64,000 bases of DNA from the NCBI GenBank assembly GCA_050246755.1, contig JBFWVL010000001.1, positions 352,001 through 416,000 of the forward strand. The letters are read 5' to 3'. The notes under the pieces are model-generated. The model was not told the origin of the DNA, made no database searches, and was given only the letters and a program-made list of their open reading frames with translations. This document shows positions 1,506-12,549 of the stretch, piece after piece. How positions within the stretch are numbered: position 1 is the first letter of the stretch; the number at the start of each line of letters is the position of its first letter. The DNA comes from Bacteriovoracia bacterium. GTDB taxonomy: Bacteria > Bdellovibrionota > UBA1018 > CAIPTA01. A program made the position numbers and the translations under genes.

Positions 1506-2288
1506 CTATTTAGCGAGAAACTCCACCTTACCCAATTGATCGAACGTGGCACTCACCGTATCGCCCGCACGAAAAGCCACGGCCGCGGTGGCGCCGCCCG
1601 CGAGCACGATGGATCCGGCCGGCAAAGATTCGCCCATGGCGCCCAGTAGCTTCACGAGCTCCAGCAGCGAAAGCAGGGGATTCCCCAGAATGGCGGCCGA
1701 AGACCCCTTTTGCGCGGCCGCTCCATTTTTTTCGAGCGTGATACCGATATTTTTTAGTTCGAGTTCCCCCGGTTTTTTCCTTACCGTACCGAGCACGAAG
1801 GCCGAGGAGGAGCAGTTGTCGGCCACCACGTCGGGCAGGGCGAAATCAAAATTCTCGAAACGAGAATCAATCACTTCGATCGCCCCGCATACGCTCTCGA
1901 TCGCCGCAATGGCTTCGGCTTCGGAAGGATTGCCATGCAGCTCTTTACCCATCACGAAGGCAATCTCGGGTTCGGCCTTAGGATGAATTCTTCTTCCGAG
2001 CGTGAGCGTCGCGCCGCTCGCTATTTGCATGCGGTCGGTGAGGAAGCCGTGGATAGGGCTATCAATTCCCATTTGCTCCATCTTGGGCTTGGAGGTCATT
2101 CCCATCTTGCGGCCAACGATCCGCGCGCCGCCTTTGAGGTGAAGGGCCATGAGCAAGCGCTGCACTTCGTAGCCCTGACCGAGCGAAAAACTCGGCTCTT
2201 CCACCGTAAACTTAATTACGGACTTTCCCGTTTGCTCCGCCGCGAACAATATTCCCGCGATTTCTTGCGCCTTCATTCTATTCTCCAA
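1506..2288 (-). CDS. dmpH: 4-oxalocrotonate decarboxylase (FAH superfamily; DmpH/AmnE-like)
   Basis: GRKMGMTSKPKMEQMG, IHPKAEPEIAF, EVIDSRF..F.F.LPDVVADNCSS, GSSAAILGNP, GGATAA. Confidence 0.88.
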   Translation of the reverse strand: MENRMKAQEIAGILFAAEQTGKSVIKFTVEEPSFSLGQGYEVQRLLMALHLKGGARIVGRKMGMTSKPKMEQMGIDSPIHGFLTDRMQIASGATLTLGRRIHPKAEPEIAFVMGKELHGNPSEAEAIAAIESVCGAIEVIDSRFENFDFALPDVVADNCSSSAFVLGTVRKKPGELELKNIGITLEKNGAAAQKGSSAAILGNPLLSLLELVKLLGAMGESLPAGSIVLAGGATAAVAFRAGDTVSATFDQLGKVEFLAK

Positions 2289-3057
2289 AAAAACAGTGCA
2301 CGTTTCCGAGACCAGCGATTTCCACGTCTACCCTATCGCCCGCCTTCACCGGCATCACCGGCCCAAAGGCGCCGGAAAGAATCACTTCACCGGCTTTCAG
2401 TGCCACCCCGAATTTTCCGAGCGCATTCGCAAGCCAGGCCACCGCCAGGCAAGGGTGATCGAGGCAAGCCGCGCCGGTGCCGGTGGAAAGAATTTCCCCG
2501 TTAATTTTCAGGCTCATCTTGGCGAGGGTTAAATCCAGGGAGGAAAGCGAATGCTTTTCCGTGCCCAGCACAAAGTGCGAAGAAGAGGCGTTGTCGGCGA
2601 TCGTGTCCTGGATCTTGATTTTCCAGTCGCGCACGCGGGAATCAATGATCTCGATCGAGGGAAGAATATAGTCCGTTGCGTGGATCACATCCTGCATCGT
2701 TATGCCGGGGCCTATCAAGTCGCTCTTGAGCACGAAGGCCACCTCGCCCTCCACCCGGGGCAAAAGGAGCTTGGCGCGGGAAAGGCTTCCGCCCGAGGAA
2801 ATCTTCATGTCGGAAGTGAGGTAGCCGAAATCGGGCTCTTCCACGCCCAATTGTTTCTGCACTGCCCTAGAAGTAAGGCCGATTTTCTTCCCCACGAGGG
2901 TCAGGCCTTCTTGCTCGAGGCGGCGCTTGAGGTTAATCTCGGACACGGAGTAGGCGTTGCCGATCGTGATTCCGGGAAACTGGGCGGTGAGCGGTTCCAC
3001 CGGCGAGGCCGAGAGGCGGGCCTGAAAAAGGGCGTCAGCTAAGGAAGTAAGATTCAT
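2278..3057 (-). CDS. mhpD: 2-keto-4-pentenoate hydratase (MhpD/AmnF-like)
   Basis: GKKIGLTSRAVQKQLGVEEPDFG, PRVEGEVAF, EIIDSRVRDWKIKIQDTIADNASS, GAACLDHP; overlaps the dmpH start. Confidence 0.92.
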   Translation of the reverse strand: MNLTSLADALFQARLSASPVEPLTAQFPGITIGNAYSVSEINLKRRLEQEGLTLVGKKIGLTSRAVQKQLGVEEPDFGYLTSDMKISSGGSLSRAKLLLPRVEGEVAFVLKSDLIGPGITMQDVIHATDYILPSIEIIDSRVRDWKIKIQDTIADNASSSHFVLGTEKHSLSSLDLTLAKMSLKINGEILSTGTGAACLDHPCLAVAWLANALGKFGVALKAGEVILSGAFGPVMPVKAGDRVDVEIAGLGNVHCFFGE

Positions 3058-3065
3058 CTTCCCCC

Positions 3066-3094
3066 ACTCTAGTGTCAGGCCAGCGTGATTTCAA
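3066..3094 (-). promoter_or_regulatory. sigma70-like promoter for mhpD-dmpH (near-leaderless)
   Basis: Minus strand TTGAAA-N17-TAGAGT, ending 8 nt before ATG 3057. Confidence 0.6.
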
Positions 3095-3107
3095 GAAGGG
3101 ATACTCG

Positions 3108-9610: not shown

Positions 9611-9746
9611 AGCGCGGTAAATCTCGCGCATGGAAAATTTTCTTCTGCGAACTCACTTACTTAGTATTTAACGCAAGGCTTCTACAGCGCTGCAAGTAAT
9701 CTAGCGTCACTATTCCTTTTCCTCTCCTTCAGGTAAAGTGCTCTCC

Positions 9747-10646
9747 ATGGCCGAAAAAGGAAAAATCGTCGCCGGGGTTTTAGCCCCCCACCCGCCCCAC
9801 CTCGTGTACGGGGAAAATCCAAAACAGAACGAGCCGCGCTCGGAATGCGGCTGGGAAAATTTACGCTGGGCCTATGAGCGCTGCCGGAAGAATATCCTCG
9901 CGCTAAAACCCGACGTACTGCTCGTACATTCTCCTCACTGGATGACGATGGTGGGCCACCACGTGCTCGGCGTGGAAAAATTCAAGGGCCTCTCGGTGGA
10001 TCCGATTTTCCCCCACCTCTTTCGCTATAACTACGACCTGAAAGTAGATGTGGAGCTTTCCCTCGAGATCGCCAAGCAAATCGAAGCCCAAGGCATGATC
10101 ACGAAGGTGATGAAGAATCCTGATTTCCGCATCGACTACGGAACGATTTGCTCCCTCCATCTCATCAATCCGGCCTGGGATATTCCAATCGTCTCGATTT
10201 CTTCCAATAATTCTCCCTATTATTTCTCTAACGAAGTAGGCCAGGAGCAGATGATGAAGCTTGGCCAGGCCACGAAGCACGCGATCGAGAAAACCGGGCG
10301 CCGCGCGGTGCTGCTTGCGTCGAATTCCCTCTCGCACCGCCACTTTACGAGCGAGCCCGAAATTCCTGAAGACATGAGCTTTGAACACGTCTACCACCAC
10401 GGGCAATACCTGTGGGACATGCAGATGATCAAGCTCATGCGCGAAGGCCGCGCCAAGGAATTGCTCGCCGTGCTCCCGGAGTTCATCGATATGGCCTCGG
10501 CCGAAGTGAAAGCCGGCGCGCTCGCCTGGATGCTCTCGGCGCTCGACGTGCCCACCTACCCCGGCATCGTGCACGGCTACGGTTCCGTGATCGGCACCGG
10601 CAACGCGGTGGTGGAATGGAACCAAGAAACGAGGGGCGCGCAATGA
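9747..10646 (+). CDS. amnB: 2-aminophenol 1,6-dioxygenase beta (catalytic) subunit
   Basis: [86 protein letters not shown]; His/His/Glu iron ligands retained. Confidence 0.93.
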
Positions 10647-11917
10647 TCGTAAAAGCCCTGGTGGTGCCCGGTCACCCGCAAATCCTTCTCAGTCCCGAGC
10701 AAAATCCCGGCTGGAAAAAACTCCACGCTGCCTACGCCGAGGCCAGGAAAGAAATCGAATCCACCGAGGCCGATTTGATTCTCTACTACTCCACCCAGTG
10801 GCTCTCGGTGCTCGGCTATACTTTCCAAACCGATCCCAATCCAGAATGGGTGCACGTGGACCAAAACTTCCACGATCTCGGCTCCATGCCCTACAAATTC
10901 AAATGCGACGTGGAATTCGCCAAAGCCTACGCTGCCGAGGTAAAAGCCGCCGGCCACCACACCATGCTGGCGAACTACCGCGGATTCCCGATCGATACGG
11001 GCACCATCGTGGCCCAGAAACTGCTGAACCCGAATAACCGCTTACCCGCCGCCATGGTGAGCTGCAATATGTACGCGGAAAAAAATGAGACGATCGAGCT
11101 AGGCCGCGCGGGCTTGCGTGCGCTCGAGAAATCGGGCAAACGCGCCGTGGTGGTTTTGGTCTCGGCGCTCTCGAATCGCTACTTCGTGAAAGAGATCGCG
11201 GCGAAAGACGATCGTATTTCTTCGGCCAAGGACGACGAGTGGAACCGCAAGATCGTGGAGCTCCTCGGCGAAGGCCGCCTCGAAGATACCGCGCAAGTAG
11301 CCCGCGATTTTGGCCGCGAAGCCAACGGCGATATGGGCTTCAAAGGAATCTGGTGGCTCGACGGGATCTGCGGCGAGACGAACGAGTTTTCGGGCAAAGT
11401 TTTCGGCTACGAACCCGTGTGGGGAACCGGCGCCACCCTCGTTTCCCTGAGCCCCAAGGGAAAAGTGAAATCCGTTCCCCTGGCACCCAAAGAAACGAAA
11501 AGCGAAAACCAAATCGTGGATGCCGCCAAAGCCCCCGAACCCGTGGGCGCCTATCCCCACGCGCGCCGCGAAGGAGAATTCCTGTTTCTCTCGGGCGTAG
11601 GGCCCCGCGAACGCGGAAAAAAAGAGATTCCCGGAGTGAAGCTCGATAGCAGTGGACAAATCCTTTCCTACGATGTGGAAATACAGACCCGCTCAGTGAT
11701 CGCCAACGTGAAAACCATCCTCGAAGCTTCCGGATCTTCCCTCGATAAAATCGTGGACGTGCAGGTTTTTCTCACCGACATGAAGAAAGATTTCCCCACG
11801 TTCAATAAAATCTACGCGGAGCACTTCGCGAAAATCCAAGCCACCCGCACCACGATCGAAGTGGGATCCCTGCCCACGCCGATCGCCGTGGAATTCAAAG
11901 TGATTGCGCGCGTATGA
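10643..11917 (+). CDS. amnA: Fusion: 2-aminophenol 1,6-dioxygenase alpha subunit + RidA-family 2-aminomuconate deaminase
   Basis: ATGA-coupled start at 10643. N-terminal part: [42 protein letters not shown]-terminal part: [25 protein letters not shown]...[16 protein letters not shown]...[21 protein letters not shown]. No stop between the two. Confidence 0.9.
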
Positions 11918-12549
11918 AGATTTGGGACATCAGCCCGGTGATTTCCGAGAAGACGGCCGTATTTCCCGGCGACGTGCCTTTTTCCCGCGAAGTTTCGATG
12001 GACACGAAAAAAGGCCACCACCTCACCCTCTCGGCCATTCGTTCCACGCTGCATATCGGCGCGCACGCCGACGCCGGCAATCATTATCATAAAGAGGGAA
12101 AAGGCGTGGAGGCGCGGCCCCTCGAATCCTACCTGGGCGACTGTGAAGTGATCGCCGTAAAGCTTCCCCGTGGTGCCCGTATCGGAATCGAGCATTTGAA
12201 CGGAAGAATCCCGCTCGCCCCCCGCGTGCTCTTCAAAACAAATTCTTTTCCCGATCCCGATCAATGGAACAATGATTTCAATTCTCTCTCGCCCGAGCTG
12301 ATCGAGTTCCTCGCCGACCGCGGCGCTATGCTCGTGGGTATCGACACTCCGAGCGTAGATCCCGTGGATTCCAAAGCCCTCGAAAGCCACCAGGCGCTGC
12401 ACCGCAGAAATCTCGCCGTGCTCGAGGGAATCACGCTGGAACAGGTAACGGAAGGCGTGTACACCCTGGTCGCTTTGCCGCTGCGAATGAAAGACGCTGA
12501 CGCTTCGCCGGTTCGTGCTATCCTTATAAACAAAGAAACGTTGTTGTGA
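11914..12549 (+). CDS. kynB: Kynurenine formamidase (metal-dependent cyclase family)
   Basis: WDISP....AVFPGD, HIGAHADA, RVLFKT, LVGIDTPSVDP, LEG, ALPLR...DASPVRAIL. Confidence 0.92.
   Translation: MKIWDISPVISEKTAVFPGDVPFSREVSMDTKKGHHLTLSAIRSTLHIGAHADAGNHYHKEGKGVEARPLESYLGDCEVIAVKLPRGARIGIEHLNGRIPLAPRVLFKTNSFPDPDQWNNDFNSLSPELIEFLADRGAMLVGIDTPSVDPVDSKALESHQALHRRNLAVLEGITLEQVTEGVYTLVALPLRMKDADASPVRAILINKETLL

Follow-up and report, generated by a model that had tools for sequence, protein, structure and literature searches.

A tryptophan gene cluster of a Bacteriovoracia bacterium that most likely bypasses kynureninase through aspartate and 2-aminophenol

The gene cluster and its lower pathway

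The stretch of DNA analysed here (the window) comprises 64,000 nucleotides of a Bacteriovoracia bacterium (positions 352,001 to 416,000 of contig JBFWVL010000001.1, assembly GCA_050246755.1). Near its start, kynA and kynB, the genes for the opening steps of tryptophan breakdown, are clustered with genes of the amn type for cleavage of 2-aminophenol, a divergent luciferase-like monooxygenase (LLM) and a homologue of class-3 asparaginases (AsnII) (table 1). To our knowledge, the textbook routes onward from kynurenine all proceed via kynureninase, which depends on pyridoxal 5′-phosphate (PLP), or via transamination. The most likely reading of this gene set is that it breaks down tryptophan without kynureninase, converting kynurenine to aspartate and 2-aminophenol, and the genomic evidence presented below gives good support for LLM as a putative bypass of that enzyme. 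A full-text literature search, which covered neither subscription journals nor supplements, found no paper tying kynurenine to a Baeyer–Villiger step, an LLM, amnB or catabolic 2-aminophenol.

Table 1. Genes of the cluster, with positions in the window and the matches on which the assignments rest.
Gene or product	Position	Strand	Evidence
dmpH-like 4-oxalocrotonate (2-oxo-3-hexenedioate) decarboxylase, FAA-hydrolase family	1506-2288	-	PF01557; best NCBIfam TIGR03218 dmpH 244 bits (cut-off 351)
dmpE-like 2-oxopent-4-enoate hydratase	2278-3057	-	TIGR03220 dmpE 323 bits (cut-off 409)
kynA, tryptophan 2,3-dioxygenase (TDO)	3108-3977	+	PF03301 Trp_dioxygenase 179 bits; TIGR03036 274 bits (cut-off 391), model positions 5-264/264
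LLM, divergent luciferase-like monooxygenase	3982-5166	+	PF00296 32 bits
Secreted SNase, staphylococcal-type nuclease	5457-6155	+	
AsnII, class-3 (Rhizobium-type) asparaginase homologue	6248-7279	+	PF06089 167 bits
ALDH, 2-aminomuconate-6-semialdehyde dehydrogenase (AmnC/NbaE type)	7276-8718	+	TIGR03216 575 bits; PDB matches
Secreted hypothetical protein	8715-9233	+	
PTH2, archaeal/eukaryotic-type peptidyl-tRNA hydrolase	9230-9610	+	
AmnB, 2-aminophenol 1,6-dioxygenase beta (catalytic) subunit	9738-10646	+	PDB sequence matches
AmnA alpha subunit (residues 1-~270) fused to RidA-type 2-aminomuconate deaminase (~290-424)	10643-11917	+	LigB and Ribonuc_L-PSP domains in one open reading frame
kynB, arylformamidase	11914-12549	+	PF04199; TIGR03035 207 bits (cut-off 223), model positions 1-203/206

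An earlier note, made from the DNA letters and their translations, had named the catabolic genes of this cluster. The open reading frame (ORF) listing and family scans found all of them where it had placed them, including a separation of 4 nt between kynA and LLM (kynA TAA at 3975-3977, LLM ATG at 3982) and an overlap of AsnII with the dehydrogenase gene, which the note had called amnC. That overlap is of 4 nt, as are those of AmnB with AmnA and of AmnA with kynB. The RidA deaminase that the note listed is also present; it is not a gene of its own but the domain at the C-terminal end of AmnA, encoded in one ORF with it. The ORF of kynA opens at a GTG at 3072, with the ATG at 3108 as its likely start. 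KynA and KynB both score above the Pfam cut-offs and below the TIGRFAM equivalog cut-offs. The dmpE-like and dmpH-like genes overlap each other by 11 nt and are divergent to the rest of the cluster, which is interrupted by three genes unrelated to the pathway, those for the secreted SNase, the secreted hypothetical protein and PTH2.

AmnB aligns over residues 7-299 with solved beta subunits of 2-aminophenol 1,6-dioxygenase (E 1e-123 to 3vsg_B and 8e-123 to 8ihg_A), and the AmnA part aligns over residues 2-268 with alpha subunits (E 3e-57 to 7txy_A). Among solved structures, the RidA domain comes closest to a 2-aminomuconate deaminase (6izh, E 5e-23, residues 296-422), and every one of the top seven PDB matches of ALDH (E 7e-137 to 5e-135) is a 2-aminomuconate 6-semialdehyde dehydrogenase. 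The two-subunit LigB-type dioxygenase, the semialdehyde dehydrogenase and the deaminase of the amn pathway are all represented here, and the lower pathway can securely be assigned to the amn type from sequence. The decarboxylase and hydratase fall best into the dmpH and dmpE families, each below the equivalog cut-off.

Some relatives of the cluster (L103, L105) carry RidA as a separate gene after AsnII. The SNase gene keeps its position in the nearest relatives, L001-L003, and also in L004, and an acyl-CoA carboxylase pair (carboxyltransferase and biotin carboxylase genes) lies directly downstream of the cluster, at 14565-17722 of the window. The datasets listed as containing this stretch include none of RNA.

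Canonical kynurenine enzymes and co-occurrence across genomes

The genome from which the window comes (3.55 Mb in 10 contigs, 95.7% complete) was searched with profiles and, at E ≤ 1e-3, by tblastn with KynU, HAAO and ACMSD of locus L114 from the same phylum. Neither approach found a match for kynureninase or for ACMSD (ACMSD/Amidohydro_2 profile). The tblastn search with HAAO was likewise empty, and so was the profile search for 3-hydroxyanthranilate dioxygenase, in which the positive control also gave nothing. Two FAD_binding_3 proteins are encoded elsewhere in the genome; NCBIfam calls neither of them KMO, and no KMO-specific model was used. The genome-wide search for kynU, haao and acmsD proposed with the original observation has thus been made and found none of the three. 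The lack of canonical enzymes that was first remarked on for the window therefore extends to the whole genome for KynU, HAAO and ACMSD.

We then considered 251 genomes sampled evenly from the same phylum. kynA was found in 164 of them, kynureninase in 58 (54 over the cut-off), LLM in 40 and AmnB in 30. LLM and kynureninase were not found together in a single one of the 251. Each is accompanied by kynA, which is present in all 40 LLM genomes, in 19 of them at most 10 kb from LLM, and in 57 of the 58 kynureninase genomes; 67 kynA genomes have neither LLM nor kynureninase. The AsnII profile matched in every LLM genome (40/40), and all 30 AmnB-positive genomes carry LLM. Within a single family, f17 (34 genomes), LLM occurs in 13 genomes and kynU in 16, again with no overlap. 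Among 50 further genomes reached via LLM loci, Acidobacteriota included, none encoded a kynureninase over the cut-off (the two highest scores, 123 and 118 bits, fall short of the cut-off of 246), and matches to TDO and KynB were present in 47 and 48, respectively. LLM and AsnII had been expected to co-occur with kynA and amnAB and to anti-correlate with kynU. For LLM the anti-correlation is complete in the sample; for AsnII it breaks down in nine kynU-positive genomes of f17, to which we return below.

Family f17 also shows how the two gene sets relate in position. Its sister genera carry variable gene sets between guaA and a sigma-54 regulator with kynA: LLM-AsnII/KynB; amnB-amnA-ALDH-dmpE-dmpH-LLM-AsnII/KynB; RidA-ALDH-dmpE-dmpH-HAAO-ACMSD-KynU-AsnII/KynB, the operon seen at L114; RidA-ALDH-dmpE-dmpH-AsnII/KynB; and AsnII/KynB alone. 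LLM thus sits in the operon slot that HAAO-ACMSD-KynU holds in sister genera, which supports LLM as the functional replacement of these three enzymes. The AsnII/KynB element is a fusion, found in f17 and f27 and also on metagenome contigs, in which AsnII forms the N-terminal domain and KynB the C-terminal part of one ORF of 511-555 aa (Asparaginase_II and Cyclase domains). It is present in operons of both the LLM type and the kynureninase type (loci L087-L094 and L113-L123; for example L114:9214-10815).

When metagenomes were scanned with the fusion, 39 kynB loci measured 6 kb or more. kynU was present in 14 of these, none of which had LLM or AsnII, and LLM was present in six, of which four had AsnII and none had kynU. 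AsnII without LLM in the same stretch was seen in three loci, two of them beside amnBA, and 16 loci had none of these genes. Where full-length fusions had enough flanking sequence, LLM lay directly upstream in all three cases. The combination of kynU with AsnII was seen only in f17, where AsnII is fused to KynB.

Gene linkage in related loci

A scan of the genome collection returned 236 relatives of LLM, and the best 80 (58-80% identity), from Bdellovibrionota and Acidobacteriota, were analysed for their neighbours; 33 of these loci have full 10-kb flanks. ALDH was near LLM in 65 of the 80 loci (32 of the 33 with full flanks), AsnII in 62 (27 of 33), AmnB in 52 (26 of 33) and AmnA in 51. kynB (15 loci; 9 of 33) and kynA (9 loci; 6 of 33) were less often close by, and dmpE/dmpH were near LLM in seven. 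Six of the full-flank loci have no AsnII; four of these were checked, together with one other locus of the kind, and in all five genomes AsnII was found beside amnB-amnA at a second locus. The carriers include Sulfidibacter corallicola M133, in whose complete genome the genes lie at L025 and L104. In divergent lineages, with LLM 37-46% identical, the genes for LLM, AsnII, KynB and KynA are adjacent, some with amnB-amnA-ALDH-dmpE-dmpH in front. The earlier note had made its proposal depend on conserved linkage of LLM and AsnII to kynA/amnAB; in most of the 80 loci LLM is linked to AsnII, AmnBA and ALDH, and in the divergent lineages it is a neighbour of AsnII, kynB and kynA.

Directly upstream of LLM, 46 of the 80 loci encode an atypical short-chain dehydrogenase/reductase (SDR; example L018:4422-5222), the gene for which often overlaps that of LLM. 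Across 40 sequences this protein has a conserved S-N-T-x-R in place of the classical Y-x-x-x-K, and no homologue was found in the genome of the window. The SDR (at ≥40% identity) and dmpE/H never share a locus among the 80, L007 holding a looser member of the SDR family; dmpE/H are found in only 6 of the 50 LLM-locus genomes, and Thermoanaerobaculia loci have neither. The SDR could be the flavin reductase of LLM, or a reductase that replaces dmpH/dmpE. In Thermoanaerobaculia, a gene for a FadL/TodX-type outer-membrane channel lies upstream of the LLM operon (L057:3-1445 and eight other loci).

The oxygenase and the asparaginase homologue

LLM is barely visible to general profiles. Beyond the weak Pfam match (table 1) it has no NCBIfam model and no PDB sequence match at E ≤ 1. 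An exhaustive HMMER search of 1.84 billion sequences gave 296 representatives at E ≤ 1e-3, apparently all of one family, which comprises more than 3,000 clusters at 90% identity and carries generic source annotations. Taxon labels on clusters of language-model look-alikes gave the only hint of an occurrence in archaea. An AlphaFold model built with 28 homologues was predicted with high confidence (pLDDT 92.9) as a luciferase-like TIM barrel. The nearest folds to the model are a homodimeric luciferase (8cbb, Z 30.8), LuxA (29.8), RslO1 (29.8) and a flavin monooxygenase domain of PKS/NRPS systems (27.3), followed by the type II Baeyer–Villiger enzyme 3,6-diketocamphane monooxygenase (3,6-DKCMO, 4uwm, 26.2). 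Enzymes using coenzyme F420 reach a Z of at most 24, and SsuD and RutA about 23. Use of F420 by LLM is unlikely, because CofD was not found in the genome, and the F420 enzymes also rank lower structurally. We propose that LLM is an oxygenase dependent on flavin mononucleotide (FMN), which would catalyse a Baeyer–Villiger reaction on kynurenine or N-formylkynurenine. With regard to flavin supply, a search of the genome found no Flavin_Reduct protein and one FMN_red reductase, on another contig. A Fre/LuxG-like reductase gene occurs near LLM in 15 of the 80 related loci and has no homologue in the genome of the window.

The only solved relatives of AsnII are the class-3 asparaginases ReAIV and ReAV. 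Arg47, Ser48, Lys51, Ser80 and Lys263 of ReAV are reported to be essential for activity (PMC12292245). The equivalents of all five, and of the zinc ligands Cys135 and Cys189, are kept in AsnII and 19 homologues; in the window protein they are R52, S53, K56, S81 and K243, with zinc cysteines C129 and C183. The Cys-Lys-Cys zinc site is incomplete: where ReAV has Lys138, AsnII has E132 and its relatives have Lys, His or Gln, and in some of these a Ser/His/Asp variant replaces the entire site. As judged by these residues, AsnII keeps the machinery for forming a β-acyl-enzyme on an α-amino acid, and we propose that it acts as a hydrolase of β-aspartyl aryl esters or anilides. AsnII as a substitute for KynB was considered and rejected: KynB is encoded in 48 of the 50 LLM-locus genomes, with strong scores in 45. 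A second, more distant PF06089 homologue is encoded elsewhere in the same genome (G000:C6:129723-130583; 123 bits to the AsnII profile, 29% identity), and its product may be an ordinary class-3 asparaginase.

Proposed route and rival explanations

In the route that we propose, KynA would open the indole ring to give N-formylkynurenine. LLM, with reduced FMN and O2, would form a peroxyflavin that attacks the aryl ketone of either kynurenine or N-formylkynurenine, and migration of the electron-rich aryl group, a Baeyer–Villiger insertion, would yield an aspartate β-aryl ester. AsnII would hydrolyse this ester to L-aspartate and 2-aminophenol or 2-formamidophenol; with a free amine, a prior rearrangement of the ester to N4-(2-hydroxyphenyl)asparagine may occur, and this anilide would then be the substrate of AsnII. 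Any 2-formamidophenol would be deformylated by KynB. AmnBA would cleave 2-aminophenol, ALDH would oxidise the resulting 2-aminomuconate semialdehyde, the fused RidA domain would deaminate 2-aminomuconate, and the dmpH/dmpE-like pair would take 4-oxalocrotonate to 4-hydroxy-2-oxovalerate. The carbon would balance, the C11 of tryptophan being divided into formate (C1), aspartate (C4) and the ring (C6).

The route to aspartate and 2-aminophenol is the only reading that uses LLM, AsnII and AmnBA with a carbon balance and without kynureninase. We infer its chemistry (the Baeyer–Villiger insertion, the O-to-N shift and the release of aspartate), which is plausible, and with it the substrates of LLM and AsnII, the order of deformylation and the supply of FMN. 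Taken as a whole, aerobic tryptophan catabolism free of kynureninase, through an LLM-made ester, AsnII, 2-aminophenol and amn meta-cleavage, is on balance the account that we consider probable. In one variant, N-formylkynurenine would be the substrate of LLM and deformylation would come last, which fits the AsnII-KynB fusions and the gene order LLM-AsnII-kynB. A bolder and, in our view, doubtful extension has this variant as a widespread third, PLP-free branch of tryptophan breakdown: the formyl group would protect against the O-to-N shift during the Baeyer–Villiger step of LLM on N-formylkynurenine, AsnII and then KynB would release L-aspartate, formate and 2-aminophenol, and in the 10 of 40 carriers without AmnBA, predatory bacteria would have 2-aminophenol, or a phenoxazinone derived from it, as an end product.

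A number of observations weigh against the proposed route. LLM has no characterised close relative, and the window itself contains no gene for a flavin reductase. At the lower end of the pathway, neither a 4-hydroxy-2-oxovalerate aldolase over the cut-off nor an acylating acetaldehyde dehydrogenase was found in the genome, the only HpcH_HpaI matches being marginal ones inside large proteins. The Fisher p values for the mutual exclusion of LLM and kynureninase (1.7e-5 in the 251 genomes, 1.7e-9 among the kynA-positive ones and 9.8e-6 in f17) take no account of relatedness among the genomes and thereby exaggerate the support. AmnB is missing from ten of the 40 LLM genomes, including five of one genus and three that are near-complete; LLM is therefore not invariably tied to cleavage of 2-aminophenol, and the upper module can stand alone. 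In G088, G104, G120, G165, G245, G155, G258 and G282 (for example at L087, L090 and L068), LLM, AsnII, kynB and kynA are present with no AmnB match.

Further observations of this kind concern AsnII, which is found (139-290 bits) in nine kynureninase-positive genomes, all of f17, that have neither LLM nor AmnB. In a comparison covering eight of the nine, all 11 catalytic and metal residues were kept in 8/8 kynU-type and 7/7 LLM-type fusions. Invariant AsnII columns number 65 of 297 in the kynU type and 63 of 297 in the LLM type, with no group-specific column, and dN/dS of the AsnII domain is about 0.1 where computable, dS being saturated. In the tree, fused and unfused forms make up two sister clades separated by a deep split, and sequences of the kynU type are mixed with those of the LLM type. 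By these sequence measures, the AsnII domain is under selection in genomes without LLM and has an LLM-independent role. Since the fusion is intact and equally conserved in kynU-positive genomes lacking LLM, hydrolysis of the LLM product cannot be the whole function of AsnII, and its assignment in the proposed route is weakened.

These same fusions argue for an explanation in which LLM alone is the bypass, its ester product falling apart or being cut by another hydrolase, and AsnII has a separate job tied to KynA and KynB, which could be that of an ordinary asparaginase or lie at the formylkynurenine or kynurenine stage. The constant core of the f17 operons would accord with this, as AsnII/KynB and kynA stay in place and LLM/AmnBA and HAAO/ACMSD/KynU swap around them. 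Beyond f17, however, the AsnII subfamily was seen only in LLM genomes (40/40, against none of the 49 other kynU genomes), it is missing from all 14 metagenome kynU loci, and LLM directly precedes each of the three flanked full-length fusions. When AsnII is apart from LLM it adjoins amnBA, and the shared intermediates contain no amide or ester except the formamide. We consider this explanation unlikely.

The remaining alternatives fare worse. The amn genes might serve exogenous 2-aminophenol or aminophenols from nitroaromatics, with the proximity of kynA and kynB a coincidence and LLM and AsnII belonging to another pathway; the pollutant-degrading role of the characterised amn/cnb/nbz clusters would suit this, as would the landfill and wastewater metagenomes that make up the datasets containing this stretch. 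The nested distribution of AmnB (30), LLM (40) and kynA (164) among the 251 genomes argues against it, together with the closeness of kynA to LLM in 19 of 40 genomes and the adjacency of LLM, AsnII, kynB and kynA in divergent lineages, and we regard it as very improbable. A different use of the same genes, in which LLM would hydroxylate kynurenine in the manner of KMO, AsnII would be a PLP-independent kynureninase and AmnBA would cleave 3-hydroxyanthranilate, would also account for the missing KMO and kynU. It would need ACMSD, which was not found in the genome, and a Ser-Lys hydrolase would have no obvious PLP-free way to cut a C–C bond; AmnB, moreover, matches 2-aminophenol dioxygenases at E 1e-123. 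The chance that it is correct seems slight indeed. Slighter still is the chance of an ordinary kynurenine pathway with kynU, KMO, HAAO and ACMSD hidden in unassembled DNA. The completeness of 95.7% over 10 contigs leaves room for this in the ~4% outstanding, but the same absence is seen in 40/40 LLM genomes of the phylum and, over the cut-off, in 50/50 LLM-locus genomes, several of them single-contig, and the canonical route would leave AmnBA with nothing to act on.

If the route to aspartate and 2-aminophenol is correct, it would constitute a new branch of a central amino-acid pathway, with an oxidative cut of an aryl ketone that yields aspartate. It would also provide the first functions for the separate LLM family and for a subfamily of class-3 asparaginases, and would explain why pollutant-type amn genes are frequent in uncultured Bdellovibrionota and Acidobacteriota. 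Prediction of tryptophan use from genomes would change as well, the gene set being present in 40 of the 164 kynA-positive genomes of the sample.

Comparison with known systems

The canonical kynurenine pathway (KynA, KynB, KMO, KynU, HAAO, ACMSD and 2-aminomuconate semialdehyde dehydrogenase; example locus L114) has the KynA and KynB steps in common with the window, and the two are alike again from 2-aminomuconate semialdehyde onward. In between, the cluster has LLM and AmnBA, probably with AsnII, in place of KynU, HAAO and ACMSD. The side products of the canonical pathway are alanine and CO2, whereas the window route is predicted to give aspartate with no PLP step.

The lower part of the cluster resembles the amn/cnb/nbz pathways, known from Pseudomonas, Comamonas and Burkholderia, where the characterised clusters function in the degradation of pollutants. 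AmnB/AmnA, 2-aminomuconate-semialdehyde dehydrogenase and a RidA-type deaminase are common to both, and the dmpH-like and dmpE-like genes are candidates for the 4-oxalocrotonate decarboxylase and the hydratase. Those pathways are fed by nitrobenzene or aminophenol; the window cluster would be fed by tryptophan via kynA, kynB, LLM and AsnII. It differs further in the fusion of AmnA to the deaminase and in the aldolase and acetaldehyde dehydrogenase, which were not found in the genome.

AsnII shares with ReAV and ReAIV of Rhizobium etli (7os3, 8cly) its membership of PF06089, Arg47, the Ser48-Lys51 and Ser80-Lys263 pairs and two zinc cysteines. It departs from them in identity (~25-30%), in the replacement of the zinc Lys138 by Glu and in the setting of its gene, which is locked into tryptophan/aminophenol clusters.

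In type II Baeyer–Villiger monooxygenases and bacterial luciferases, a flavin peroxide attacks a carbonyl. LLM has the TIM-barrel fold in common with these enzymes (4uwm; LuxA, 1luc; 8cbb), at Z 26-31 over ~315 residues, with only 14-19% identity, and its family is small and separate. The closest parallel in pathway logic is the degradation of 4-hydroxyacetophenone, which pairs an aryl-ketone Baeyer–Villiger monooxygenase (HAPMO) with an aryl-ester hydrolase. There, as in the proposed route, oxygen is inserted beside an electron-rich aryl ketone and ester hydrolysis then gives a phenol. HAPMO is a type I enzyme using FAD and NADPH, whereas the window would combine an oxygenase of luciferase-like fold with a class-3 asparaginase homologue as the hydrolase.

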